The position numbers and the translations under genes were made by a program. A stretch of DNA of 64,000 bases. Source: Catajapyx aquilonaris (lineage: Eukaryota). The notes beneath the pieces were generated by a model. It saw only the letters and a program-made list of their open reading frames with translations. It was not told where the DNA came from and made no database searches. Positions 1 to 52,100 of the stretch are shown piece by piece. The stretch covers positions 1 through 64,000 of the forward strand of contig KZ538063.1 in NCBI GenBank assembly GCA_000934665.2. The letters run 5' to 3'. How positions within the stretch are numbered: position 1 is the first letter of the stretch; every line of letters starts with the position of its first letter.

Positions 1-402
1 TTTTTGCCTGTACCCTATTTATACCTCGTTGGCGTTGCCCCCACTTCAAAATGGCCGCCAAAACCATCAAAGATGGCGGACCCTATTTTTGCCTGTACCC
101 TATTTATACCTCGTTGGCGTTGCCCCCACTTCAAAATGGCCGCCAAAACCATCAAAGATGGCGGACCCTATTTTTGCCTGTACTCTATTTTATACCTCGT
201 TGGCGTTGCCCCCACTTCAAAATGGCCACCAAAACCATCAAAGATGGCGGACCCTATTTTTGCCTGTACTCTATTTTATACCTCGTTGGCGTTGCCCACA
301 CTTAAAAATGGCCGCCAGCCTTGGCAACGGCTCCAAACAGAGAGACGCGGAAATCAATGGCGCTGACCGAAGTTTGCGCCTCTTATGTAGTATATTCTGC
401 CT
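1..402. mobile_element. Right part of a P-like MITE (family A) with an internally amplified 85-86 bp tandem array
   Basis: About 3.5 tandem units start at 1, 86, 171 and 257, followed by the family terminus GTTTGCGCCTCTTATGTAGTATA. The same sequence occurs at ~5425, ~10282 and 16975. Confidence 0.8.
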
Positions 403-437: not shown

Positions 438-2046
438 CTGTGTCTCTTGTGGAGAAGACGGCTCAGTTGTCTCTGAAGATTTGTCGTCATTCGTCCTGTG
501 GAAAGTGACAATTAAAGACATAGCCTGAGATGTTTGTACTCTCAACAGCTTACCATTCTGATATGCACTTGTCAACATCATCTGCTGAGGGCCTCTGGTC
601 CGGATCTCTTCTGCACATACTCCGAAGCAGCTCTTGCCTGTTTGGCGGATTCTGCTCTGCGAATAAGTATGGCATCACATTGTCCGAACCTGCTTTCAAA
701 GTGTCCAGAGCACGTTGCTGGTCACTCCTCGTGAAATCGCTTGGAAAGGACGTCATCCCCAAATAGAAGATGACTCCCAGTGCGAATATGTCAGATTTGA
801 AATCAGTTTGCTCTGTGCATGCTGCAAACAGGATTGTTGCTGACCCTCTGTTGTGGCTGTGGTATGTTGTTGGACTCTGTATGGGATATCCGGCTATCTC
901 TTTGGCCACCCCAAAATCGCCCAGTTTGACAGTCCCGTCCATGGCGAAATAGACGCTAGACGCCTTCAAATCCCTATGGATATGACCTTCTCCATGGATG
1001 TACTGTAAAGCTGACACTATCTGTACAAAGTATGACAGAAACTGTTGCTGGTCGACCTTTGACCTGTTCTTTCTAATGTAATGCTCAAGCGTCTCAGTCT
1101 TGCACAACTCCATTTGCAAGTACAGGTAATGAGATGTCCCGGCTAAATACACCTGCCGTTTGCAAATTTGTTGAGTAAAATGCTTCAAGTCCCAATCCTG
1201 CTGTTTGCTGGTCTCAATATTTTCCTGCCATGAGTCGTGTACAATCACTATATTTTGGTGACTCATATGTACCAGATCCAGCATCTCTGTTAATGACTTT
1301 TTGGAAGCATTGTGAAGAGCAATCCGTCTGATTGCGAACACTCCATGTTTGGTGTATGCTTCAAACACAAGTCCATGTCCATCAGAGCTGATGTGCTTGA
1401 TGGTCGTTAATGTGCTGCAGCAGTGACCTTTCTTCACTGGAAAAACTGCATCCAAGTCATCCTCAGTGCTGTGATAAATTACTGTAATTAGTAACCAATA
1501 ATGAGGTGAAAAATTATCCGTTCTTTACCTGGCATCCTCCACTTTCAATATGTCATCCAGGTGATGCAAGATATCTAGGTTTCCTGCTTCGACAGCCAGT
1601 GCTCTTGGTGACTTCCCTTCCTTCGTCTTTGCACCTGGGTCAGCCCCATTGGTCAGCAGAAGCTTGACCACCATCAGGCTGCCAAACTTCACCGCCAAAT
1701 GAAGCGGAGTTACCTGCATGTTGGTCTGGATGTCCACCACAGCTCCATTGTCCAGAAGCTTTTTGCATATCTGGACATTGCCTGTCTGGGCTCCCTCGTG
1801 AAGAGCTGACCGGCCATCTTTATCTTGAGCGTTGATGCCACATCCAGGGTGGTCAATCAGAGTCTCGCAGGCCATAAGCCTCTCTGATCTAGATGCCAAA
1901 ATGAGCGGGGTCAGATGATGTATTCCGCTTCTCATGTTCACATCGTCTCCTTGGTCCAGCAGGTATTTCACTACCTCGTGATGTCCCTCGGCTGCTGCCA
2001 CGTGAAGATGACTCCATGTCTTCTTGTCCCGTTCATCCTCGGACAT
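438..2046 (-). CDS. Ankyrin-repeat protein fused to an eIF2-alpha-kinase (PERK/PKR)-like, probably catalytically dead kinase domain; 3' end continues off the left edge. Exons 2046-1529, 1468-554, 495-438
   Basis: Exon 1 has 4-5 ankyrin repeats (SHLHVAAAEGHHEVVKYLL, TPLILAS, SALHEGAQTGN, TPLHLAVKFGS). A 60-nt GT-AG intron (1528-1469) joins it in frame to a kinase fold with PEK-family hallmarks (YLYLQMELC, HRDLK, YFAMDGTVKLGDFG, DIFALG, DPDQRPSA). A GTAAGC donor at 553 and acceptor at 497-496 give a further in-frame exon (TNDDKSSETTEPSSPQETQ), followed by another GT donor at 437. Confidence 0.85.
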
Positions 2047-4899: not shown

Positions 4900-7800
4900 A
4901 TGCAAGTCATGATGATCCCTGTGGTACTGTTGTCCGTCCTGGCCGCGTGTGCCATGTCGGCTGGCCCGGAGTCATATGGAGAGTACGACTTCATTATTGT
5001 GGGTGCCGGTTCGGCAGGTTCTGTGGTGGCCAACAGACTGACCGAAGTGTGTGACTGGAAGGTACTTCTGATCGAGGCAGGAGGACTGGCACCTCGCATC
5101 GCAAGTGTGCCGTACCTGGCACCAGCCCTGCAGAAGACCCCGATTGACTGGCAATACTACACCGAGCCAGACAATCGAACCTCCCAATCGATGGACAAGA
5201 AGACCGGGTTCTGGCCCAGGGGCAAGGTCATGGGCGGAACCAGCATTCTCAACTACATGCAGTACGTCAGGGGAAACAGACGAGACTACGACGGTTGGGT
5301 AGAACTGGGCAACACCGGTTGGGGATACGATGACGTGCTGCCATACTTCAAGAAATCCGAGGACTTCCAAGGTAATCCTTTGGCAACATTGTCAAAATTG
5401 GCAAGGCCAATCAGATCAATAACAGAGGCGCAAACATTCGATTTCCGCGTCTCTCTGTTTGGGGCCGTTGCCAAGGCTGGCGGCCATTTTGAAGCGGGCA
5501 ACGCCAACGAGGTATAAATAGGGTACAGGCAAAAATAAGGTCCGCCATCTTTGATTCGCGCGTGTTATTGCCGTGTAAACCGCCAAAACCATCAAAGATG
5601 GCGGACCCTATTTTTGCCTGTACCCTATTTATACCTCGTTGGCGTTGCCCCCACTTCAAAATGACCGCCAGCCTTGGCAACGCCCCAAACAGAGAGACGC
5701 GGAAATCAATGGCGCTGACCCAAGTTTGCGCCTCTTATCCTCCCTGCTATTATCTTGTTTCTGAATCTGAAGGTAACGTGAGTGGCATCGACAAGGATTA
5801 CCATGGCTTTGGGGGCTATTTGACTGTCCAGGGATTGGACACGTTCAGGTCCCCACTGGAGCAGATGATCCTGGATGCTGGGAAGGAGCTGGGCTACGAC
5901 ACCAGGGATTGCAACGGGGCCAATCAGACCGGGTTCATGGATCTGCAAAGGACCACTAGGAGCGGACAGAGATGCGACACGGACCTGGCCTTTCTGGACC
6001 CAATCTTAGGGAGGCAGAACCTGAAGATTGCAATGCTCGCGCAGGTCCATAAGATCCTCATTGACCCAGGTAAGGCTGATATTTCCTACGCGACGAAGTG
6101 GCGCGCAGGAGTCGGTGTGGAGGTGCGGGGGGCAGTTCAGAGGATTAATGAAGCAGCAATGCAACGAACGTAATTGTGGCTTTGCCAAAGCTAGATGCCC
6201 ACTCTAACGCACTCTCTGAACAACCCGCGACCCGCGACCCGCGACCCTTCATCGCGTAAGAAAGATCTTCCGATCAAATAAGGAGCAGTAGAAAATCAAG
6301 AGGTTGAGAATGAAATCGGTATACTGTCGTCCCAAGGAGAAACACCATATCTCCAAAACTAGTAATGGTGACGTTTTTGAGATAGGGTGTTTTTCCTTGG
6401 GATGGCAGGATAGATGGCTCACACTTTCCGAAATTTAGTGGCACGACATGACGTATGGATTTTAAATCTCTCATTTTGTCAGGTACGAAGCAAGCGCATG
6501 GAGTGTTGTTCAAGATGGACGGTAAGATGTACGAAGCACATGCACGTAAGGAAGTGGTGTTGAGCACTGGCACCATTGCATCGCCCCAGATGCTGATGCT
6601 CTCAGGTGTAGGCGCAAAGGACCATCTGGAGTCAAAGGGTGTTCCAGTGGTCCTGGACCTTCCAGGAGTCGGAAAGAACCTGCACGATCACGTCTCAACA
6701 CTCATGATCTTCACTGCTGAAACTGGAGGAAAGGTGGACCCTCCAGCTGCACTGACAACACCCAATTTTCTGGTAATCTTTTTTTTCTTCCACGCATGAT
6801 GTGCATTGACCTAATCTGTGCCCTTGACCTATACAGGCATGGCTTGGCCAAGGTCCTAGCCCCCTGAACCTCCCTGGAGGCGCGGAGAACTTAGGATTCG
6901 TCCACTCCCAGTTCAGCAAAGTGGGCGAAGATGCTCCGGACATCCAGCTGATCTTCCTGAGCCTGTCCTTCCTGTCCGATCCAACCTCTCTGGACAACCC
7001 CCCCTTCTCCATAGGCAAATCAGCGTACCAATCGGTGTACCAAGAAGCCATGGGACGAGAGGCCTTCGTAACAGCTCCTGTCCTCTTGCACCCAAAGAGC
7101 AGGGGTTGCATACTCCTCAAGAGCTCAGATCCAGAGGCATACCCTGCCATATACCCCAACTACTTCAAGGATGAGCAAGACGTCAAGGTAAAAATTCTTA
7201 TTCAGCACGTTTAGTAAAAGCGACTCAAGATGAAGCGCTTCAGGTTCATGCTCGTAGCATGTCGAAATCCGGATCGTCCATGTAGTATTCACTGATACTT
7301 TTGAACACCAAAAGTATTGAACAGCCACCTTTGAACAATCACTGCTAGGTTTGAACAGCTTCGGTAGTAATCACTGCTAGTTTTGAACAACTTCAGTATA
7401 AATCACTGCTACTCTCAAATATCTGCAGTAGTAATCACTGCTACTTTTGACCAGCTGCAGCATGAATCTCTGCTAATTTTGCATCCTGAATTAGTAATCA
7501 CTGCTAGTTTAGAAAAGCTGTAGTAGTAATCACTGCTAGTTTTACAAAGCTGCAGTAAGTAGTAATCACTGTTATTTTAGAACCACTGCAGTATTAATCA
7601 CTGCTACTTTCAAATAGCTGCAGTAGTAATCACTGATACATTCAAATATCTGCTGTATAGTAATATCACTGCTACTTTTGAACAGCTGCAGTAAGTAGTA
7701 ATCACTGTTATTTTAGAACAACTGCAGTATTAATCACTGCTACTTTCATATATCTGCAGTAGTAATCACTGCTACATTCAAATATCTGCAGTATAGTAAT

Positions 7801-8614
7801 CACTGCTACTTTTGAACAGCTGCAGTAAGTAGTAATCACTGCTATTTTAGAACAGCTGCAGTAAGTAGTAATCACTGTTATTTTAGAACAACTGCAGTAG
7901 TAATCACTGCTACTTTCAAATATCTGCAGTAGTAATATCACTGCTACTTTCATATATCTGCAGTAGTAATCACTGTACTTTCAAATATCTGCAGTAGTTA
8001 TCACTTCTACTTTCAAATATCTACAGTAGTAATCACTGCTAGTTTCATATATCTGCAGTAGTAATCACTGTACTTTCAAATAGCTGCAGTAGTAATCAGT
8101 GCTGGTTTAGAACAGCTGCAGTATTAATCACTGCTACTTTCTACAGTAGTCTAACAGCTCTTTCTCCTCCCTGAAGGCACTGACAGACGGAGCCAAGATA
8201 CTGATGAAGCTCTCTCAAACCGAGACTATGAAGAAGATAAACACAACCTTCTGGTCCAAGCCTTACCCTGGATGCGAGGAGTACAATGATCCTAATCAGG
8301 ACGAGTACTGGTCTTGCCTCTTCCACCAACTGACCATCACCTTGTACCACCCTGTGGGCACCTGCAAGATGGGGAACGACGCCGACTCAGTGGTTGACCC
8401 GCAGCTGAGGGTCAAGGGGATCAAGGGCCTGAGGGTGGTCGACGCCTCTGTGATGCCAACAGTGGTCAGCGGAAACACAAACGCTCCTACCATCATGATA
8501 GCAGAGAAGGCCTCTGACATGATCAAGGATGCTTGGCCTCATAAGAACGAATGCAGCACATGCCCTCCCACTCCCACCAGTGGTCGTCGTAGGCGCAATA
8601 AGTGGATATTCTAG
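4900..8614 (+). CDS. Secreted GMC oxidoreductase (glucose dehydrogenase [FAD, quinone]-like), ~615 aa. Exons 4900-5371, 5773-6069, 6483-6772, 6837-7187, 8177-8614
   Basis: Signal-peptide-like N-terminus; FAD motif [74 protein letters not shown]; catalytic [10 protein letters not shown] and [17 protein letters not shown]. The five GT-AG-bounded exons sum to 1848 nt in frame. Confidence 0.95.
5425..5746. mobile_element. P-like MITE family A copy in a GMC gene intron
   Basis: Two long inverted arms (GAGGCGCAAAC...GTTTGCGCCTC) ending in CTCCCTG; homologous to 16975-17299. Confidence 0.8.
7335..8150. repeat. Intronic minisatellite, ~30-bp unit (CTGCAGTAGTAATCACTGCTACTTTTGAACAG)
   Basis: More than 20 degenerate tandem copies fill the last GMC intron. 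Confidence 0.9.
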
Positions 8615-9226: not shown

Positions 9227-10752
9227 TTAGGGGTTGATAATAATGATGATTGGAGGCTTTGTGGTGGTGGTAGGAGGCTTGGTCGTGGGCTTGGTCGTCG
9301 GAGGTTTGGTTGTTGGCTTGGCAGTCGTCGGTGGTTTGGTTGTGGTGGTGGTTGGTGGCACAGTCGTCGTCTCCTCCTCGAAACTGCAATCCACAGGAGC
9401 CACATTCACAGCTTGTCCTATAATAAACAAGTTCGAGCCATAACCAATACTTTTCTTTAAAAACAACAAACAAGTGCAATTATTGACAAACCTTGTCGGA
9501 CGCAGAATATCCGACAGTTGAACTGATAGCTAGGCATTATATTCAGATTGATTGTTTTCTGTCGCACGAACAATGTGTCGCTGCATTGCCTGTAATAATT
9601 GACATTGTTACTATTGCTCTCCTGAAGACATATACCGTGATGTATACTGACCCACTGGCGAGTCGGATACAGTTTCCGTTTCTGAAGTGGATACTACCGC
9701 ACGGACACTTGACAGTTATGAGACATCCAGCTCTGGGCTGTAAATGAGCCACAAAATTAGCATCGTTTGCCCTAAAGTGTCATGGCCGCGTCTTTGAACT
9801 CACCCCTGCTGAAAACGAATATGCCCTTGGAGCCACAGCCAGTTTCTCAGACATTCCTTCAACAGCTGACCTGGGTTTTCCTCTAGGCTGACCTCTTCTC
9901 CTGGGTTGACCTTTGGGCTGCTGACCTCTCCGTTGAGCCCTGTTAGGTTGGCTACGCTGAGCGTTCATCTTGTCGCGATGGGTCAGCACCACTATGGACT
10001 TCTGGAGCATCCTGTACTTCCCAGGCTGAAGTCCTACACAAAAGAATATTTTATTGCAACACCTCTTTATGTTCCTCTACTGTTTAATTACCATTGTAGA
10101 TCTGATTGGCTCTGAGCAGCTTCACATTCTGCTTCTTCCCAGTTTGTCTAGCCGGTTTCCGCTGCTGATTGTTGTTGCTTCTGGGCTTATTGGCAGGCTT
10201 CTTCCCACCTTTCTTCTGCCCGTTCTTGTTCTTTCCCTTCTGCTGGGGACCACGTGCGCTCTGAAACATTAATTAACGAATCATATACTACATAAGAGGC
10301 GCAAACATTCGATTTCCGCGTCTCTCTGTTTGGGGCGTTGCCAAGGCTGGCGGCCATTTTGAAGTGGGGGGAATGCCAACGAGATATAAATAGAGTACAG
10401 GCAAAAATATGGTCCGCCATCTTTGATTCGCGCGTGTTCTTGCGGTGTAGTACCCATGGCCGCCAAAACCATCAAAGATGGCGGACCCTATTTTTGCCTG
10501 TACCCTCGTTGGCGTTGCCCACACTTCAAAATGGCCGCCAGCCTTGGCAACGGCCCCAAACAGAGAGACGCGAACATCAAAGGCGCCGACAGAAGTTTGC
10601 GCCTCTTTATGTAGTATATGCTCCCTGCATTTCTTATAGAGATCTCTCACCGCTTGGTAAGTGTCTCCTTCGAGAGAAGCGTCTGCCAGTATTTCCAAGA
10701 TGACCAGAGAGACAATGGCGACGACCACGACCAGTCGCATCCGACCGTCCAT
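9227..10752 (-). CDS. Uncharacterised secreted protein, ~291 aa: signal peptide, basic K/R/Q/N-rich region, Cys-rich domain, Thr/Pro/Lys-rich tail. Exons 10752-10651, 10260-10092, 10033-9804, 9737-9652, 9589-9492, 9417-9227
   Basis: Hydrophobic leader MRLVVVVAIVSLVILEILADA; six exons with GT-AG boundaries and consistent phases totalling 876 nt; eight Cys across the last three exons; PTTKPPTT repeats. Confidence 0.7.
10282..10627. mobile_element. P-like MITE family A copy in intron 1 of the secreted-protein gene
   Basis: Inverted termini CATATACTACATAAGAGGCGCAAAC...GTTTGCGCCTCTTTATGTAGTATATGCTCCCTG; the left tip is missing a few bases. Confidence 0.85.
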
Positions 10753-16760: not shown

Positions 16761-18870
16761 ATGGCCCGAGGCCAATGTGTGGATATGGAGGCGTTGATGG
16801 AAGCGGTTTTGTCCACCAGACGTTTCATGGAAGAGGAACTAGTGTGTCGGATGGATAAATTGGAAGAGAAAATCGAGATGATGATGAGACAGATGGAGAC
16901 GAGGATGCTGATGAAGCTGGAGGATTGCATCAGGAAGGAGGGTATAATATGTCACGTATTGTATATACCTAGGGCAGGGAGCATATACTATACATAAGAG
17001 GCGCAAACATTCGATTTCCGCGTCTCTCTGTTTGGGGCGTTGCCAAGGCTGGCGGCCATCTTGAAGTGTGGGGAACGCCAACGAGGTATAAATAGGGTAC
17101 AGGCAAAAAACTATGGTCCGCCATCTTTGATGGTTTTGGCGGGCCATGGCAACTACATCAGGCGGACCAAATTTTTGCCTGTACCCTATTTATACCTCGT
17201 TGGCGTTCCCCACACTTCAAAATGGCCGCCAGCCTTGGCAACGCCCCCAAACAGAGAAACGCGGAAATCGAATGTTTGCGCCTCATATCATGCTCCCTGC
17301 CTAGGGTGAAGCGCAATATTTTTTTAACATTGCTAGTTGTTTGCAGTCGCAGCTTCGACAGACCCGCTATCAGATCCCCTGGAGAACAAGGAGGACATGA
17401 GCTTCAAAATGGAGGCAGAAGATGATTGGGGATCTGAAGAGGCTATGCAGGACTCTTCAGAATGTAGATATTCAGATGCGAATCACGTAAGTTAGGGGGC
17501 GCATCATATAAAATGGACAAACGATCAAACTTCGCCTTACATAGATTTAAAAGGCAAATTTTGTTTGTTTGTCCAACCATTTAATACCCATTTCATACTA
17601 TGGACAGGCAAACAATTAATTTTATACCCATTCGTACCCGTTTTCGTACCCATTTCATACCCATGCAAAAAAAGGGTTCTTTGCTAGCTTTTGAAAAAAA
17701 TTTGTTTACTTTTATCGTAGGTTGCGCACAGATTTGATGAAGGGGCTGGAGAAAATTCCAGGGCATTGTCACTCATGGGTCATGCAGAACAAAATATTGT
17801 CTGTGGTTCCAGGGCAGGTATGGCTAAATTTGCGGTTCCGTTGGAGGATGTTCTCATTAGTTTTTTTTTTATTATTAATTCTGCAGACGGGCGTCTGTTG
17901 CCTCGAGACGGATGTGGCCGAGCAGCTGGTACAAGCAGCGTCACTTCCACTGATGAGAGAGAGATGGAGTCATCTTACCAGGAAGACCAGCCGATAATAG
18001 TGGTTGATCATAGAGAATATGAAAGCAACAATTTCAGAGCAGTTACAGATGAAGATCCCCAAGACGAGAGATGCAGACGTTCAAAACCGGTATGTACTTG
18101 CGTTGAGAAATTTTGCAAACTCCAGGATTAGCACATCCTTTTTTTTCTGTGCAGCCTTTTCCTCTTCCGCATTTTTCGACAACAGTTCAGCCTCTGTTGA
18201 TGGGTGCACCACTCGCATCTGTGCAACATGCGCGATTGAATTCTCAACTTATAGATGAGATAATCATCTACTTGGAGTAAGCCATACCCTATTTTTTATA
18301 CTGTACATGTCATTTCTGCAAGCTCGTTCTTTTTCAGTACTGCAGACCTCATAACGATGGAAAATTGTGGACAGCGGAGATGGGAGTATCATAGACTAGG
18401 TAAAACTTTGGCTGAGACTTACATCAACATGTCTTGGGAGCAAAAAATTAACAAGTCAAAGGATTCGAGAAGATCCAAGGTTTGGGTAAGAGACACTTCA
18501 ATTGGGCACAATTGGAACATGTAATCTCACGTACGACTTATTTTTGTAGACGACTTTCATTCAGCGTTTGTCGCAAAGAAGAAAACAGCAGAAACTGGCA
18601 GCTTCCAAGAGGCCGAAAGGAAGAAAAAGTAACAATCATTAGTCTCAAGAGCCTGAGGAATTATTAGTTCCCAGCGAGGAGCCGAAGGTAATTATTCAGA
18701 ATAAATCATGCATATATGTTGTTGAATATAACCTTAATGTCATGTTGCAGGTATCGGAATCCAGTAATGGTACTCCCGGGATATGCGATAAATTGCCTGA
18801 GAGACAGTATGTGTGTCAACAAAGCTCGCAGATGGCGTCAACCAGTCATTCCGATGTCGCTTCATGAAAT
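16761..18870 (+). CDS. Uncharacterised multi-exon protein with an N-terminal Met/Glu-rich helical domain; 3' exon structure uncertain
   Basis: Exon 16761-16941 (DMEALMEAVLSTRRFMEEEL...) splices in phase 1 to 17347-17486 (VAASTDPLSD...FKMEAEDDW). Further GT-AG-bounded segments extend to ~18.9 kb. Paralogous to the 19504 gene. Confidence 0.6.
16975..17299. mobile_element. Complete P-like MITE (family A) with a 7-bp target-site duplication
   Basis: TIR CAGGGAGCAT...ATGCTCCCTG flanked by direct CCTAGGG at 16968-16974 and 17300-17306. CANRG termini with a 7-8 bp TSD fit the P superfamily; hAT is not excluded. Confidence 0.85.
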
Positions 18871-20818: not shown

Positions 20819-22176
20819 TCAAATTGAGAATTTGAGAATAAAACTTAAATAGGTGCCACCATATCACAGTAGGAAAAATGCACTTCACTTACACATTAAT
20901 TTTAATTCAGTTTGATTTTAATATTACGCTGATCATATTTTTTTTACCAATTTGTATGGAGAAAATCAATTGAATTACCCAGAGTGACCATGGCAAATCG
21001 TACTGTAGGTAAATAAAAAATGTGCGCTTCACTCAATACATTAATTTTAATCATACTGGTATATTTTATTTTCTTACAGGAGACGCAGAAGAAATTTGCT
21101 GGGGATACAGGAGAAAATTCCGGAGAGACATCGGCGCTTTTGGCTCCTACTGATCGTGAGAGATGCTCAGATGAAGGTATGACTTAATCTGACCTTCGCC
21201 TGCAAAGATGAAAACTTTTTGCTATTGTTATGCTGCAGGTTTGCAAGATGGACTTGATTCAGTTCAAGACCAGATGCCCCGAAGGAACTCCGTGACTCAT
21301 GAAATCGTGTTTCTCCCTGAAGCGGTTTCAAGAGCCACCTTTGAGAGTGAGGTGTGTAGTTTGATTTTAACATTTTTGCACCTTGATCTTTCACAGAGGC
21401 AAAATCTGTCATGCATTACCACTAGTTTAAGACCAATGCCGTTCACTAATGAGTACGTATTACTTCAGGAGGATGTGGAATTTCTGTCGGGTCAGCAGTG
21501 TAACCGGTCATCTAGTAACAACAGTGCGCAGCCTGCTGAATCAGTCTGGGACACAACCCAGCCGAAGATGATGAGAACATTAAAGGAACCAGTGACTTCC
21601 GATGGAAATAGGTGTATGGCTAACGGGAGGCCACTGAATAGAAAGAAGTTTTGGTGCAGGTTGTGTACGTACAAGACTAACCAGAAGTCCCATTTAATCC
21701 GACACTGGGGACGTGTCCACGAAAAGACATCAAATCAGACGCAGAATTCGCAGACTAGCAAAGAATCAAGTTTGCTGAATATGCTGCGGAGGACAAGGTT
21801 CAAATGCAGCATGTGTCCCTACGCGACTGATAGGAAATACCATTATGATCGACACAGCATGAGCATCCATGGAAAGAAGCCAAACCACATGCAGAATTCA
21901 GAGGTCAATTATATCAGGCCCGAGGACAAGTCCCTGAGTGGATCAGAGGGGAAGAAGTTTCAATGCAAGATGTGTCATTACGGAACTGATAGGAAGGACC
22001 ATTTTAACAGGCACTGGATGAGAATCCATGCGAAGAAGTCGGATTCCTACGCAACTGATAAGGAACGCCTTCACGACACTCGCCACAAGATAGTATCGTA
22101 TCGGAATGAAGAGGACAAGAATTCAGATCAGACATCCGGAGATGAAAGTGGCGGAGACTCAGAGTCACCAACTTAA
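19504..22176 (+). CDS. C2H2 zinc-finger protein (three widely spaced fingers) with the same N-terminal helical domain. Exons about 19504-19708, 19766-19974, 21080-21176, 21239-22176 (the last block likely contains short introns)
   Basis: Fingers FWCRLCTYKTNQKSHLIRHWGRVH, FKCSMCPYATDRKYHYDRHSMSIH and FQCKMCHYGTDRKDHFNRHWMRIH; phase-consistent GT-AG introns upstream. Confidence 0.8.
19985..20158. mobile_element. PIF/Harbinger-like MITE
   Basis: Imperfect TIR AGCTGCCTTTACATGTGAGC...GCTCACATGTAAACGCGGCT flanked by TTA on both sides; sits 10 nt inside an intron. Confidence 0.7.
20270..20820. repeat. AT-rich intronic tandem repeats and (ATA)n
   Basis: ~49-bp unit TTTATTTCGAATAATTGATACAATAATTTATTTGAATAACTA..., ~33-bp unit TTTATAATAAACGTAATACAAAAATTATTTTAT, then an ATA run. 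Confidence 0.85.
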
Positions 22177-22691
22177 AAGTGTCCAGTGCCCAGCCTGTAC
22201 TTACAACAAGAAGTGTTCGCACGCGGATCGTGACAATGACATCATACTGTGTGGAAAGTGCATACAATATACATCTGTAACCGTAGTGAAGAGTAAAATG
22301 CCCCAGAACAAATCCAGTAAATATTCTTCTGGGACCTATTGAAACCAACGTTCTTGTTCAGCATATACATCACCGGAAAGCTCAACAGTACTTTAATTAC
22401 TCATACGGATATGGATAGGATGTGAATTGAATTTTGCAGCACGTGTCAGATGCACGCCATTGAAAACATCCTTTGTACATTCTGGACAGCGGATTTGTAA
22501 ACAAACCATTAAAAAAAAAAAAATCACGCCTGGCTGCCTCGTTATGCGGAAACTGATTGAGCTAAGTGGTCCACTCAATTGCTTCTTACGACGCCAGTCA
22601 TGAAGCACAACAATGTAATTGGACAGTTTGTTCAAACATGAAAATGCTGCTCTCCACTTTCCTCTGCCTTTCTCTGTGTCCTAGCCGAGGA

Positions 22692-23750
22692 TCAGTTCCT
22701 TTGAGACCTTTGAACGTTCCCTGCAGCCGTTCCTGGGGTTTCAGACCTGCGATGAATAGTTGGTGTCCAACCACTGGGCCCAGCTTCACCGAATGCTCTA
22801 CAGGCACGTGATAATGCAGTGCGCTGGTGAGAGGCCTCCTCCGTGCTGCTGACGTCCTCCCAAGTCGGGTCTTCATCCTCTACACGAGGTGAATGCACTT
22901 CCCCGCTGTAAGCTGGGGAATCAACCTGGCGGAACATGTCCTATAAAGTAAGTGGAAAATTACTGACAACTTTTCGTGACTTGAAAAACCTTTTTTAAAA
23001 ATATTTAACTACAGAAATTTCGAAATTTTTGAAGCGCATACTGACCGTGGCTGGACAGGAAGAGATGCCACCCCCATCGGGATGATTCATGGCAGGGGCG
23101 TCCTCCTCATAGTCCGATATGTCCTCGTATGGTCCAGGTTCATTCCGTGAAGCCTCCGCATCCATCATTTCCATGTCCACAGGTGCCTCCGAGATGCCAT
23201 CGCCATTAGGCGTTGCAGTCATCAGATCAGAACTTGCAGTGCCATTGTTGCTCGCAACATGGTCAGCTGCCTGCTGCTGGGTCCAGGGGGCATCTCTCGT
23301 CACATGAACCGGAGCATCCCTGCTGCGGTTGTTCAGAATGACCCAAACGGCTCCCGTCATGGTCACGTCGTCATCCTCATCGCTTCCATGGGGTGTCTGG
23401 TGAAGGGGATCAGGAAACTGCATGGATCTTAGCAGCTCTTTTAAGGTGCCTTCCAAACGCATATCGCATGTGATTTCTCCGCACTCAAACAACTCGATCA
23501 GCTTCAATACCGCATCTTTAGGGAATTGGGTCATGCAGATGGTGACTGTCCCATCGAAACGGTCTATACCACTGTCCTTTCCGAGAAGGCTCTTTATGAA
23601 CGGGGAGCAACGGATCAGAACCAGTTTGCTAGTCATGACCACTCCGTCCGAGCAGCATATCTTGGTGTCAAGAATGGGAGATGCATGTCGATCTGCAACT
23701 ACCCAATCCACAAGTTGGCTATCGTCTCGTATAAAGATGCAGGCCGTCAT
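22692..23750 (-). CDS. BTB/POZ-domain protein, paralogue 1 (no intact zinc finger). Exons 23750-23046, ~22940-22692
   Basis: DTKICCSDGVVMTSKLVLIRCSPFIKSLL...LKLIELFECGEITC...LKELLRSMQF. The last exon is homologous to those of paralogues 2 and 3 but stops at QRSQRN*. Confidence 0.75.
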
Positions 23751-24171
23751 CTTCTGGGAGAGGTCAAACGTTGAGGTGCACTGGAGGAGGTCATAAAAAA
23801 TATACGTCTGAATTACTTGAAAGTTGAACTGGAAATGAGCCGGGGCTTACTTGTTTATAAATGCCCTGTTGTTGTGGAGTTGCCTGGGCAAGCGAATGAA
23901 ACAGTGTTTGCTTTGGTAACATTCAAGCCAGGCCCTGTTTAAATTAAGTAAATAACAACCGATGAAAACAAGGCATTTTATTGATCATGTACACGCAACT
24001 TGGGTTAATTACTCATGCGTGACCTGTGTGGTGTCAATTGAATTTTGCAGTGTCAGACACACCCTGTAATGTTAACGAATCCTTCTAAACAAACATGAAA
24101 ACCACGGCGAAACAATAATGACCGACTGTTGCGTATGTGCTGAAAAAAATATTTCCCTCGATTGTACCCCC

Positions 24172-25305
24172 TTATCCGCACCGGGTTTTTAGAGAGCAAT
24201 GTGCTCGATTGCAATTACGGCGGTGTGAGTTCAAAATTTTTGTAAGGGTTCGCCTCTTCAGCCGATTGGCAGATGTCCTTTTCCGACCCACGCCATGCAC
24301 CTTTAGTTCATGCCCTTCCAGACTCTTTCTATGCGCATAAACTTTGCTGCACATGTCGCACTGGTATGAGCCCCTCTTGGCTGAGAGAAACTCCGGACCC
24401 TCATTCCTCTGTGCTGTTTGACCCAATCCCTTTGTTTGTGACCTCTGAATATTTCCTGCAGAGCGGCTGCGAGTAGTTGGCCTCCAGCAACTACGTCCTG
24501 CTTCACTGGACACTCTGGCTACGTAGATGTGATAGTCAGGCGACATATGGTCATCCATAATGCCGCAGCTGTCCTCCGAAGCCAAGCAACTGTCTTCACT
24601 GTCCATGCCCTATGAAGTCAAGAGAGTTACTTGGCTTATTATGAACCCTATATTATGTGTGTGTATGTGTAATCAGATTGTACACTAGCTAAAATCTGTT
24701 TTTACCTCCACAGAAGCAGCTGAGATCGTCCGGCTATCAACTGTGACGTCACCGTCAAAATCCTCTTGGGCAGCTTCGATCCATCTGCTGCCTCCATCCA
24801 CGACATCCCCTTGGAGATCCCTCGTCGCATTAACTAGAGGAGGACGGTCTGATTTTGCACCTCTGGTAACCCCATCCCCGCTGCGGTTGTGTCCAAAGAC
24901 CCAAACGCCGCCTTCCATGGTGACTTCATCGTCATCCCCATTTCCATAAGGCGTCTGGTGAAGCGTATCCGGAAACTGCACAGTTCTTAGCAGCTCTTTT
25001 AATGTGTTTTCCGAACGCTGATTGCAGGTGACCTCTCCGACCTCAAACAACTCGATCAGCTTCACGATCGCATCCTTAGGGAATTGGCTCATGCGGATGG
25101 TGACTGTCCCATCATGATCTAAGCACCTGTCGTCTCCCAGAAGGCTCTTTATGAACGGGGAGCAACGGATCAGAACCAGTCTGCTAGTCGTGACTACGCC
25201 GTCAGAGCAAACTATCTTGGCGTCCTGAATGATGGGGATGCGACGGTTCTCTTTCACCCAGTTCACGAATTGCCTGTTGTCTCGTAGGAAAACGCAGGTC
25301 GTCAT
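24172..25305 (-). CDS. BTB/POZ-zinc-finger protein, paralogue 2 (one C2H2 finger). Exons 25305-24706, 24609-24172
   Basis: DAKIVCSDGVVTTSRLVLIRCSPFIKSLL...; finger YQCDMCSKVYAHRKSLEGHELKVH. Confidence 0.8.
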
Positions 25306-25857
25306 CTTCTGGCTCTGAAAGACGCCAATTATTTCCATAACAGGTCACATTGGCATTGCCAACACAGATTGTTGATCTGATAAATACCTTTTATCGCCTT
25401 CGAACGGATGAGATCTAGAGTTTTAATCCGGGAAAAGCTGATCACAGGCTCTTTCCGTTGGGTCCAGTAGCCATTTGATGTGGGCAGTACTAGATCAAAG
25501 GTCACTGGAGGCGGTCAACATAGGTCTGGAACACTAGAACTGATGACCTTAAGCCGTTTGTTTATTTGGGGTTGCCCCGAGTGAGGTCACCTGACTACCT
25601 GGGGTAGTTTATTTACCAAATTCCCAGGCCGCAAATAATATTGGCAAAATGTCACGCCCCATTGGCCGACACTGTTTTGAAAGGAGCAACGACTGCAAGA
25701 GAAACAGTAGCCTCCAGTATAAGCAAATGACATGATGAAAACAAAGTGTTTTATTGGTCACGTACACTGATTTCCAAACAAACAAACATGAAACATCTTG
25801 CCTCGGTTTGGCTCGGTAAGTCTGTAGCCGTCTATAGTTTCTCCTCGGATTCCAGCC

Positions 25858-27401
25858 TTAAGCTGACTGTGTGCTGTCACTATTGTGTGAATCGACGCCG
25901 TCATCTTGGTGAACAACCTCCTTGTGCACACGATAATTTGTCGCAGTGCGATATCGCCGCCCACATCTTTTGCAAACGTATATGCGACTCTCATGCGTCA
26001 CCATATGGTTTCGCAACAGGAGGGCATGCGTGAATGCCCTATCGCATTTGGTGCACGTGTAGCGCCTCACGTCACTGTGCATCATATTTTTGTGAATCCT
26101 TAGGCTATGCAATTTCGAGCAGGTCTTTTTGCACATGTCACACGGGTATCTGTTTTCAGACTGTCTCCCGGCCCCTTGTCCTAAGAGCCCTTCCTGACCT
26201 GCATTCCCATCGGAACCTTGCATGTCAGACTGAGCCACTTGACTACTTGACTCCATTGCTAATTGTTGCCCATTGCCAGCAGCTGTTCCTGGTGTTGCAG
26301 TGCTGGGAGTCACTGGTCTCCAACCACTAACTTCGCTCAATATGCTGCCTGCGTAGTACCCGGACGGAATGCAGATTATAGGAGGGTGCGGGCGAGGGGT
26401 CTGTTCCACTTTGTCGCTGACCTCCGAAGCCGTGTTACCATCATACATGCCTGGGTCCTACAAGGTGAGGATAAATTACTGACACTTTCGGCAGTCCCAG
26501 ATCAAGTAGGAAATATTGGTTTGGACCAAGTGTATAAATTTTATCAATATTGATTGTCTCGGATAGATCATATAATCACAAGCTACCTCCGCAGAAGCAG
26601 CTGGGCTGTCATCACCACCATCAGCAGCGTCAACATCCGCTGGACAGGCTTCATCCCTTCGACTGCCACCATCCATCGCTTCCTCGTCATTCACTGGCTG
26701 CCTGGAGCATGTTAGTTGACCCTTCGAAAGTGAGCACACATATTATTATCGCATATCATGCGCTTGTATGGTGCCCGATGCACACTGACCATAGCTGTGC
26801 AGGAAGAAGTGCAACTGTTGTCACCAGTCAGATCGCCCAACGACTGAGAAACTGGGATGGGACCTTCCCCATCTGTATCCTGCGCCTCATCGGAAACACT
26901 AATTGAGGAAGGTTCACTTTCTGCCGGTTGCGGCTGGGTTTGGGAACCATCATCTTCGGCATCCCTCCTCACGTTAACCGGACCAACCGTGTGATTGTTT
27001 TGAATGCACCAAACTTCCTCTGTCACCATTACTTCCTCATCAACCACATCTTCATTGCATGTCATGTGAAGGAGACCAGGAAACTGCACGTTCCTCAGCA
27101 GCTCCAGGAAGGAAGCTGCCAAACGCTTATCGCATGTGACCTCACCGCACTCGCACAACTCGATCAACTTCTCCACCACATCCTTCTGGAATTCTATCAT
27201 GTACAGCGCGAATTTACCGTCACGATCAACTTTGTCTTCATCTCTCAGAAGGTCCTTTAGGAAAGGCGAGCAATGGACCAGGAGAAGTTTGCAACCCTCA
27301 ACGACTCCGTCGGAACAGAATATTTTGGTGTCCTTACATCTGCTTCCCACCATCCATCCCATGAACTGCGTGTTGCTACGTACAAAAACGCACGATGTCA
27401 T
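25858..27401 (-). CDS. BTB/POZ-zinc-finger protein, paralogue 3 (three C2H2 fingers). Exons 27401-26790, 26721-26587, 26457-25858
   Basis: DTKIFCSDGVVEGCKLLLVHCSPFLKDLL...; fingers YPCDMCKKTCSKLHSLRIHKNMMH, YTCTKCDRAFTHALLLRNHMVTH and YVCKRCGRRYRTATNYRVHKEVVH; phase-0 introns. Confidence 0.85.
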
Positions 27402-27584
27402 CTTGTGCGCCTGAAAGACAACCAATAATTACCCATGAAGCGCAACATATGACTCTACTTGCAAAATTTTCGTACTCTACAACTCAGTCAGTGCAAATAC
27501 GTATAGTTAGCATTATGTTTATTCACACAACCTCCACTTTTCAAACAAATACTAATCAACATCCGTGGAATTTTTATTTCACCC

Positions 27585-49095: not shown

Positions 49096-49186
49096 AAGAC
49101 TGCGTCAATCACTGGCTTACCATTGGATTATCTTTCTCTTTCCACAGCACCTTGTTAGCAAGTAGTCTCCCCCAGACCACATCACG

Positions 49187-52100
49187 ATGGAGCTTGTGTT
49201 CCTGAAGGTCCTGGTGCTAACCCTGTCTGGGATGCTGAGACTCTTCTTCAGCTTGATCCCGCTCAAGATCATCAAGAAGATGACCGTGTGGGGCAACGAC
49301 AAGGACAGTTCCGAGGAGGTGGTGAGGAGGCGAAAGAGGAGGGTGGACACTGTCATGGCCCTGGTCCTGTGCTTCGGAGGAGGGATCCTCCTGGCCACCT
49401 GCTTCATCCACATGCTTCCAGAGGTCAGGGAGTCTCTGGACTCCGCGCAGAGGAACGGCGCGTTGCCCCGCACGGAATTTCCGCTGGCGGAGCTCTTCCT
49501 CTGCTGCGGATTCTTCCTGGTCTACATCCTCGAGGAGGTGGTGCAGTGCGTGTTCTTCCCTAGTAGCTACAAATCAAGTAGTGATGGTGCCAAAGACGCG
49601 GTTCAGCCGCAGACGGACGCGGCGGCGGCCATCAGGATACCGCGCGCCAGCAGCAACGGCAACAACAACGAGTTGACGCCAGCGTACGACCATCCGGACG
49701 CCATGTTCTGGAGGAAGGACGCCTTGTCGTCCAAGGCAAGACCACTAATCATAAATCATAATATTGAATCGTAATTGGTTTGGGTCTGTGACTATTTATC
49801 AGGTCGCGGTGAGTCATCAGTAGTGTTCAGCAGGGTAACCTACATGGTTGCCTCCCCCACCCTAGGGTGAGGACGGCACTCATGTAGGTTACCCTGGTGT
49901 TCAGAGAGTGAGGGTTCGCCAACTATGTGAGGGATAGGGTACTGCGTCCACGGTCGGGGTTGGTTCATAACTGCTAAATTAACTGCTTAAAATAGCAGCT
50001 AATATTTTTGGCAATTGCTAAAGAAGCTGTCTAAAATCAGCTGAAACTTTTGATAACTACAAAAATAACTGTTTAAAATAGCAGCTAATATTTTTGGCAA
50101 CTGCTAAAGAAGCTGTCTAAAATCAGCTGAAACTTTGATAACTACAAAAATAACTTTTTAAGAGAAACAGCTAATATTGATAACTAAAATGAGCAGCCAA
50201 TACTTTTGGCAACTGCTAAAGTAGCTGCTTAAAGTAAGCAGCTATTACTTGATGACGACTGAAAGTAACTGTTTCAAATGAGCTGATAATACTTTTGACA
50301 ACTGTTAAAGTAGCAGATTAAAATATAAAAACCACGATAGCCACTAAAATAACCATTTAAAATAAGCAGCTAATACATGATTAACTACTAAAAGTACTGT
50401 AACGATGTGAAGTGAACAGATAATACTTTAGACAGATTAAAATAGGCTATAACTTTATGTCTAATAATATATCTATTTTAAAATGAGCAGCAGCTAATAC
50501 TCGATAACTACTAAAAGCAACCATTTAAAATAAATAGCAGATATTTTTGACAACTGCTAAAGTAGCTGATTAAAAGATAAAAACCATGGTAGCTACTAAA
50601 ATAACGATTTCAAATAAGCAGCTAATACCTGACAACTACTAAAAGTACCGTAACTGTATAAAGTGAACAGCTAATACTTTCGACATATTCGATTAAAATT
50701 AGCTATAACTCTATGGCTAACAATATATATATATATATTTTAAATGAGCTCCTAATCTTTGATGTAACTACTAAAAGCAACCGTTTAAAATGAACAGCCA
50801 ATACTTTTGATGGCAGCTAAAGTAGCTATTTTAAATGATCAGCTAATACAGGGTGGTCCAAGTTCAAGTGTCGTTTTATAACGGCGATTAATAAAAGCGC
50901 TTAACGATGACGTAGCAGCGACGTGTAAAATTGCCCACTTCGATTGCGCCGAAGTGGGACATTTTACGCGTCGCTGCTACGTCATCGCAAAATCACTGCT
51001 ATTAATCGCCGTTATAAAACGACACTTGAACTTGGACCACCCTGTATTTGATAACTACTAACGGTAACCATTTGAAAATGAACAGCCAATACTTTTTGAT
51101 GGCGGCTAGAATAGCTATAGTTTTACAGTGCCAACCACTAGTGGAAGCGCAGCATTCTTTACCTTATATTCCTTCCTGCTCTTGACCAAGGTGAGACCTG
51201 CGGTGTCGCAAGTTCATCTTCTGGCGTCCAGCTTCTCACTGAACGGAGGCGACAAGACCGCGTCGGTGCCGGACCTGTCTCCGGTTCCGAACGGCCACAG
51301 CCACGAGCCTCCGAGCCAGCACAGCCACGAGCACGGCCACGGCAATGGCCACGGCCACAGCCACAACTTCAGCCTTGAGGACCTGAAGAACAAGTCGGCC
51401 ATCGCTGCCTTGAGGAACTTCCTCTTCGTCCTGGCCATCTCTTTTCATTCCATATTCGAGGGCATGGCCATTGGACTTCAGATGAACGAGAGGGACGTGT
51501 GGTTCCTCTTCGTCGCCGTCTCCATACACGACTGCGCAATCCTCTTCTGCATCGGGATGGAGATGGCCTCTTCCGGCACCAGGTTAGTACAACCACTACA
51601 ACCCAGCGGTTCCCAAACCTATGGGAGGGGTCGCCAAGCCTTTTCCGACCACGGCCGTCCCCATCAGGCTAGGGTGGGAGTTGCGGAGGGCTGACCTACC
51701 CTAACCATTATAGGAAACATTTACACATTATCGAGAATAACTGGACCAGGTCCACATATATAGGCACGAAAACAGCTTCTTGCCCTAAACTGTCATGGCG
51801 CCGGCTCTCCAACTTCCGGTTACTAGAGTCAACAATCCTTTGGATTTCTGAATAGCCTTGGACCTGCAAGTACCGGTACATGTTGTAATTGCATGGCCTT
51901 AGACAAAAAATTTTTACGGAAATGTTTAGTTCCGGATTAGACGGGAATCGGAAATTTGCAACTTTTTCTTTTGATTACATTTTCAGCAATAATTACAGTT
52001 AAGCTCTCTCTCTCTCTCTGTGTGTTTTTGTCGTATACCCTCCCCCGTAACAAACCTTCGTAATTTTACGACGCGTGGTATCAGCACTTGTGTTTTTTTC

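Follow-up and report, generated by a model that had tools for sequence, protein, structure and literature searches.

A predicted ankyrin-kinase fusion gene of Catajapyx aquilonaris with a putative pseudokinase domain of the eIF2-alpha kinase type

The eIF2-alpha kinases, or PEK kinases, are defined by four types of sensor, and in arthropods they act in antiviral responses. One viral protein directed against them, baculovirus PK2, mimics the C-lobe of the kinase domain, as the title of Li et al. (2015) has it. Catalytically dead domains of the PEK type that act in the pathway are described in several sources and comprise the K296R variant of PKR, the pseudokinase domain of GCN2 and PK2 (PMC6467004, PMC12867742, PMC4014428 and a 2025 bioRxiv abstract). 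Outside this family, RNase L combines ankyrin repeats, a pseudokinase acting as dimerization scaffold and an RNase domain (passages of PMC4718504). Here we describe a predicted gene on the minus strand of a 64,000-nucleotide stretch of Catajapyx aquilonaris DNA (contig KZ538063.1, positions 1 to 64,000; referred to as the window), in which ankyrin repeats precede a complete kinase-like domain. We tentatively read its product, with a probability of roughly 45%, as a scaffold formed by a pseudokinase of PEK descent, to which the ankyrin repeats add a binding module.

Two adjacent open reading frames (ORFs) underlie this gene, ORF 1 extending from 2049 to 1525 and ORF 2 from 1524 to 550. The TAA stop codon of ORF 1 (1527-1525) falls within a splice donor: exon 1 ends at 1529 with the donor GCCAG/GTAAAG, exon 2 starts at 1468 behind the acceptor TCACAG/C, and the split codon AG/C preserves the frame across the 60-nt GT..AG intron. 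By our own reading, an alternative acceptor, TTACAG at 1483, leads to a stop after six codons. The kinase frame is devoid of Met until the motif TEMLDLVHM, which lies 3' of the Gly loop and beta-3. Because no Met precedes the N-lobe, ORF 2 does not represent a standalone kinase gene, and a fusion of ankyrin and kinase parts is therefore the simplest reading. A single in-frame spliced gene, as proposed in the initial annotation, is a well supported prediction at the level of sequence; it would consist of two exons, possibly more, and its spliced product of 478 residues (172 + 1 + 305). Two codons 5' of the putative start codon an in-frame TAG is found (2052-2050), the AG of which might serve as a splice acceptor. 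GC content at third codon positions (GC3) is 0.56 and 0.51 in exons 1 and 2, and G+C content amounts to 28% in the intron and 37% in the upstream flank. By our own arithmetic, at 42% G+C an open frame of 324 codons is expected by chance with a probability of about 2e-9 and one of 174 codons with about 2e-5.

Exon 1 matches the Pfam families Ank_2 (7.9e-40) and Ank (2.4e-29). According to our own reading it would encode four full repeats followed by a C-terminal capping repeat, about five in total. The nearest solved structures are generic ankyrin proteins, namely ankyrin-1/2, NOMPC and designed ankyrin proteins; neither ILK nor RNase L appeared among the best 60 PDB rows for this region.

For the kinase domain, residues are numbered by their position in the translated frame of exon 2. 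Residues 30-298 match Pfam Pkinase at 7.7e-32 (111.2 bits, cut-off 31.7), which places the domain in the protein kinase superfamily. Among sequences of solved structures PERK (1.1e-26), GCN2 (1.1e-24) and PKR (3.3e-19) matched best; HRI scored 3.5e-14, and the best match outside the PEK kinases was BRAF (2.3e-16). With these kinases the domain shares a beta-5 of the YLYLQMELC type (114-122), the PERK-like WQE opening of the insert (SWQE, 79-82), HRDLK, DFG and the activation-loop Thr; the insert between beta4 and beta5 is short (about 30 residues). All motifs quoted in the initial annotation are present in the translation, including ISSDGHG (26-32), AIRR (45-48), HRDLKASS (164-171), YFAMDGTVKLGDFG (173-186) and GSATILFAACTE (208-219).

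A HMMER pass over 1.84 billion representative proteins returned 16 proteins below 1e-30, including one mite PERK as well as fish PKR genes in tandem that also encode dsRBD and Z-alpha domains; whole-protein scores went down to 3e-49. We do not regard these proteins as closer relatives, since the scores belong to models that contain multiple kinase domains: many public PKR models, here P0015-P0021, carry two such domains, which inflates whole-protein scores in kinase searches. These fish and frog models also contain several dsRBDs and in one case a Z-alpha domain, and probably represent merged tandem PKR/PKZ genes. The best single-domain matches reached about 100 bits at 29-38% identity and comprised fish and frog PKR, a Xenopus eIF2-alpha kinase, a slug kinase and insect PERKs. 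The highest identity was 34%, to a Drosophila PERK.

An AlphaFold2 (AF2) model based on 35 homologues showed a bilobal kinase fold (pLDDT 85.3, pTM 0.85) in which residues 189-209 of the activation loop are disordered. In a Foldseek comparison with the PDB every row listed to rank 40 was PERK, GCN2 or PKR, and Aurora A came next; this fold match is not fully independent evidence because the AF2 alignment consisted of PEK homologues. In the viral structure database BFVD the best matches were eIF2-alpha-kinase-like proteins of giant viruses with at most 24% identity.

We then placed the domain in trees. Of 233 fetched proteins, 107 spanned the whole domain; 14 near-copies were removed and six outgroups added. 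Smaller trees of 49 rows were built from a hand-picked set (11 PKR, 16 PERK, 6 GCN2, 4 orphans and 11 outgroups). Some rows carry the names given by their source, the remaining ones are labeled by the clade in which they fall, and none is labeled HRI. In a quick tree of 101 rows the query lay on the PEK side, in a basal polytomy outside a PKR clade (21 rows, support 99) and a PERK+GCN2 clade (68 rows, support 91), with a terminal branch of 3.46 changes per site (median 0.5); the split between PEK and outgroup had a support of 98, from five of the six outgroups. A quick mixture-model tree of 49 rows again gave a basal polytomy on the PEK side (branch 2.1, split 75). In a more careful LG+G4 tree of the same 49 rows the query was located outside PERK (95/98), PKR (100/99) and GCN2 (100/100), with a branch of 1.68 and a split of 96/76. 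One Wee1 outgroup landed on the PEK side in the 101-row and in the LG+G4 tree. In the latter the query joined the divergent proteins P0024 and P0032, both PEK-like in the PDB sequence search, at 85/87; we set this grouping aside in view of a long-branch warning. By sequence and fold the domain is thus eIF2-alpha-kinase-like, and in our trees it is positioned on a very long branch outside the named subfamilies PERK, PKR and GCN2. The initial annotation had called it PERK/PKR-type, a label that is too specific: the eIF2-alpha-kinase traits it listed agree with the sequence and fold matches and with the PEK side of the outgroup split, but the trees assign the domain to no named subfamily.

The extent of residue loss was assessed in an L-INS-i alignment of 33 PKR, PERK and GCN2 domains. 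Of the 65 columns with a conservation of 85% or more in this alignment, the window domain keeps 38 and has lost 27, the median row having lost 2 and the next worst 14. Affected elements include those named in the initial annotation, the altered Gly loop, the Lys-to-Arg and Asn-to-Ser exchanges and the degenerate APE, all of which are real and fall in columns conserved in 30-33 of the 33 domains (Table 1). The catalytic set of the PEK kinases, consisting of GxGxxG, the beta-3 Lys, the catalytic-loop Asn and APE, is consequently not found in the window domain. Kept are the alphaC Glu61, HRD, K168, DFG, T211 and R292 as well as the core residues W80, H158, D226 and G231. Conservative exchanges (K>R, Y>F, N>S, T>S) are frequent among the replacements.

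Pseudokinases are defined by loss of the VAIK Lys, the HRD Asp or the DFG Asp (passages of PMC4718504), and the window domain, with Arg47 in place of the beta-3 Lys, falls under this definition. The same passages describe VRK3, where Thr and Asp at two Gly-loop glycines block nucleotide binding. In PKR the beta-3 Lys is paired with alphaC (K296-E308; passages of PMC11457141), and K296R renders the enzyme kinase-dead (passages of PMC6467004), the exchange that the initial annotation had pointed to. The prediction of a pseudokinase is well supported by these sequence features.

An active but atypical kinase, in which Arg47 and other residues compensate and which phosphorylates either eIF2-alpha or some new substrate that the ankyrin repeats bring in, would be in line with the retained HRD, K168, DFG, alphaC Glu and Thr211, and WNK and CASK are active without canonical residues (passages of PMC4718504). 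We nevertheless consider this improbable: four catalytic elements are altered together, i.e. two Gly-loop glycines including a VRK3-like Asp, the beta-3 Lys, the Asn that binds Mg and APE, and by our own reading of the translation the Gly-loop strand offers no compensating Lys.

Apart from the catalytic site, PEK kinases are characterized by a conserved N-lobe dimer salt bridge, R262-D266 in PKR, and by alphaG as the helix recognizing eIF2-alpha (passages of PMC6467004); Y323 is part of the regulatory spine (passages of PMC11457141). We mapped the PKR numbers onto the domain by an offset of our own, derived from the Gly loop and beta-3. Mapped in this way, the salt-bridge positions are occupied by His15 and Thr19 (canonical Arg in 24 of 33 domains, Asp/Glu in 27 of 33), so that the salt bridge typical of PEK dimers is not found, and the equivalents of Y293 and Y323 are Phe44 and Val76 (Tyr in 33 and 31 of 33, respectively). 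The docking residues on alphaG, which in PKR we take to be T487 and E490, are Ser and Thr in the window domain. Judged by the alignment, all three PEK surfaces are altered, namely the ATP/catalytic site, the contact between back-to-back dimer partners and the docking site on alphaG.

These changes bear on the idea that the protein regulates eIF2-alpha signaling in stress or antiviral responses, either as a dominant-negative partner of PERK, GCN2 or HRI or as a decoy for viral antagonists or eIF2-alpha, with the ankyrin repeats gating or localizing it. The PEK origin of the domain would fit such a role, as would the kinase-dead Lys-to-Arg PKR, and the long branch could reflect an arms race. PK2, a kinase-like viral fragment, inhibits these enzymes (reference title in PMC6467004; 2025 bioRxiv abstract). 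However, changes in the dimer and docking surfaces, which such a decoy or dominant-negative mechanism needs, weaken this idea, even if the argument depends on our own residue mapping. In this the domain differs from PKR K296R, which keeps its dimer and substrate surfaces. The pseudokinase domain of GCN2 has an active domain next to it in cis, whereas in the predicted gene it is ankyrin repeats to which an entire domain is joined. A PK2-like protein was absent from the best 50 BFVD rows, and membership of the PK2 group was rejected. Overall we regard a regulator of this kind as unlikely.

Table 1. Features of the predicted gene and residues of its kinase-like domain, in window coordinates.
Feature	Position	Strand	Basis or remark
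Putative start codon ATG, AAAATG context	2046-2044	minus	ORF reading
Exon 1: about 5 ankyrin repeats, then start of acidic linker	1529..2046	minus	Pfam, PDB matches
Predicted intron 1: 60 nt, GTAAAG...TCACAG, CTAAT branch-like site	1528-1469	minus	Sequence
Exon 2: linker of about 20 residues and complete kinase-like domain, 305 codons	553..1468	minus	Pfam, PDB, AF2
Degenerate Gly loop S27-S-D29-G-H-G32	1372..1389	minus	Canonical Gly 30/33, 33/33, 33/33; first two of GxGxxG are Ser, Asp
Arg47 (codon AGA) at the beta-3 VAIK Lys	1327..1329	minus	Canonical Lys 33/33, also 4/4 orphan rows
HRD kept: H164, R165, D166	970..978	minus	Conserved-column alignment
Ser171 (codon AGC) at the catalytic-loop Asn	955..957	minus	Asn 33/33
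DFG kept: D184, F185, G186	910..918	minus	Conserved-column alignment
Activation segment/P+1, G208..E219: Thr211 kept; Phe214 (Tyr), Cys217 (Pro), Thr218 (Glu) degrade APE	811..846	minus	Canonical residues each 33/33
Helix alphaG S243, T246	730..741	minus	Canonical Thr 31/33, Glu 33/33
Kinase ORF stop TAA, inside candidate donor GAATG/GTAAGC (553-548)	552-550	minus	Sequence
Candidate intron 2: 58 nt, GTAAGC...TTTCCACAG	496..553	minus	Sequence
Candidate exon 3: 19 in-frame codons (494-438) after TTTCCACAG/G, Ser/Thr/Glu/Pro-rich, ending in donor CAG/GTCCGT	438..495	minus	Sequence

The 3' end of the gene lies close to the edge of the window, which is reached about 550 nt beyond the kinase-ORF stop. 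As ORF 1 ends in a donor-supplied TAA, the TAA of the kinase ORF, which overlaps a strong candidate donor, may likewise be supplied by a donor, and further exons could follow past base 1 of the window. A continuation 3' of 554 had not been considered in the initial annotation. The ORF around candidate exon 3 had no Pfam match. On the minus strand neither AATAAA nor ATTAAA occurs in the 552 nt past the stop (1-552). Of 16 minus-strand ORFs up- and downstream of the gene, 14 of them between 2036 and 4726, none contains a Pfam domain.

The arrangement of the predicted protein resembles that of RNase L, where ankyrin repeats at the N-terminus likewise stand ahead of a kinase fold predicted to be inactive. 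RNase L, however, has nine ankyrin repeats as opposed to five here, and it keeps a canonical nucleotide site. RNase L and IRE1 were absent from the 60 best PDB kinase matches and from the Foldseek rows listed, and we provisionally do not place the domain in this group. With ILK the product shares ankyrin repeats N-terminal to a pseudokinase and the replacement of Gly-loop glycines, and ILK has a Ser at the same position as the window domain, that of Asn171 (passages of PMC4718504). ILK, whose pseudokinase is TKL-like, differs by the absence of the catalytic Asp and by DVK at the position of DFG, whereas both HRD and DFG are kept in the window domain. As ILK is missing from the top sequence and fold matches listed, the likeness points to convergent architecture rather than kinship; the retained HRD Asp also led us to reject ILK membership. 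The ankyrin-bearing NEK kinases of protists were likewise rejected as a possible family. Compared with the PEK kinases themselves, the window domain stands apart by ankyrin repeats in place of a luminal, RWD/HisRS-like, dsRBD or heme domain, by an identity of at most 34% and by the replaced catalytic, dimer and docking residues.

The common layout with RNase L allows a further reading, an arthropod RNase L-like sensor built on a PEK chassis. In this case a ligand or pathogen protein would be recognized by the ankyrin repeats and the dead kinase would signal by a new mode of oligomerization, the output being modulation of the integrated stress response or activation of a C-terminal effector whose exons would lie past the edge of the window. 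No KEN RNase domain was found in the downstream ORFs of the window, beyond which the gene may extend. We consider this reading highly improbable. If true, it would add a fifth, non-catalytic branch to the PEK kinases, one devoted to immune or stress sensing.

Relatives of the gene were sought in several collections. In agreement with the initial annotation, ankyrin repeats are absent from the related eIF2-alpha kinases examined: the ankyrin domain of the window was matched by none of 167 related proteins in phmmer searches, and Pfam detected an ankyrin family in none of the 58 best hits out of 150 (20 at 1e-5, 38 at 1e-7). An architecture of ankyrin repeats and an eIF2-alpha kinase domain was not encountered in the literature searched (bioRxiv supplements and subscription journals being outside its scope). 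EIF2AK2 is present only in chordates, and ankyrin is not mentioned in the corresponding passages (PMC5851622). Word-indexed homologue searches yielded distant kinases with at most 41% identity and partial coverage, the ESM Atlas generic kinase clusters, and scans of metagenome and viral contigs no relative. Within the 64-kb window there is no paralogue. The missing orthologues can be attributed to the source, an arthropod-like animal, having no close relative in the protein library, since the adjacent GMC oxidoreductase finds its best matches in pancrustaceans, mostly at about 60-65% identity.

The lack of relatives in the searches made, the loss of 27 of the 65 conserved positions, the missing polyadenylation hexamer and a mobile-element-like repeat about 230 nt 3' of the stop would also be compatible with a non-functional locus, be it a recent dead duplicate, two unspliced and unrelated ORFs or an unexpressed relic. 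Against this, both exons are open over 478 codons in spite of 1.7-3.5 changes per site, and such a number of changes would not accumulate neutrally without introducing stops, suggesting that the frame was kept by selection. Most of the divergence probably arose under selection for an open frame. The ankyrin repeats fit their profile closely, the fold-critical residues W80, H158, D226, G231 and R292 are kept in a confidently modeled domain, codon-position composition is coding-like, and the kinase frame is open right up to the acceptor without a Met of its own. A non-functional locus appears distinctly unlikely to us.

According to the reading we favor, that of a pseudokinase scaffold, the domain would descend from the PEK family and have lost its phosphotransfer residues. 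Binding of a protein partner or ligand would fall to the ankyrin repeats, while the kinase-like domain, still folded, would act as a further module for binding or allostery, as in ILK or the RNase L pseudokinase. Since the dimerization and docking positions are replaced, a direct role in eIF2-alpha phosphorylation would have been abandoned. Several points weigh against this reading. The domain retains the HRD Asp, the DFG Asp, the alphaC Glu and the Thr of the activation loop, and the Arg may pair with the alphaC Glu, which leaves room for nucleotide binding or weak atypical activity. The 3' end of the gene may be missing, and an extra domain there could alter the interpretation. No orthologue or paralogue turned up, hence the odd residues are known from one locus. 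The PEK-only AF2 alignment biases the fold match, the 1529/1468 splice is a prediction from DNA, expression is presumed, and the scaffold role is proposed only by analogy. The sequence itself displays the arrangement of the gene, its family likeness and which residues are lost or kept; splicing, expression, inactivity and scaffold function are what we infer beyond it.

The remainder of the window contains repeats and further genes. At the edge of the window (1-317) lies a tandem array with 3.7 copies of an 86-bp unit and 97% matches. Related copies are found at 5435-5738, 10283-10627 and 17008-17274 as pairs in opposite orientation with 88-99% identity, one such pair being located inside an intron of the GMC oxidoreductase gene, and the unit looks like a foldback or MITE-like (miniature inverted-repeat transposable element) mobile element. 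The GMC oxidoreductase gene (about 4900-8540, plus strand) is glucose dehydrogenase-like, has five exons and a signal-peptide-like start, and is oriented divergently from the ankyrin-kinase gene; its relatives are pancrustacean glucose dehydrogenases, with identities of up to 67%. A cluster of BTB/POZ and C2H2 zinc-finger ORFs occupies both strands at 21193-27428, with weak Pfam scores for BTB; genes of the BTB-ZF type are common in arthropods. On the plus strand a single ORF of 444 codons at 29667-30998 matches F-box-like and LRR families weakly, and a ZIP zinc transporter is represented by two exons at 49166-51691 (Pfam Zip 4e-19 and 8e-18).

As the finding concerns a single locus, it carries the weight of a lead. 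A host-encoded dead PEK copy in arthropods could be a new regulator or sensor. If the scaffold reading is true, the PEK chassis would be recyclable as a non-catalytic module, as has happened in ILK and RNase L starting from other kinase lineages.

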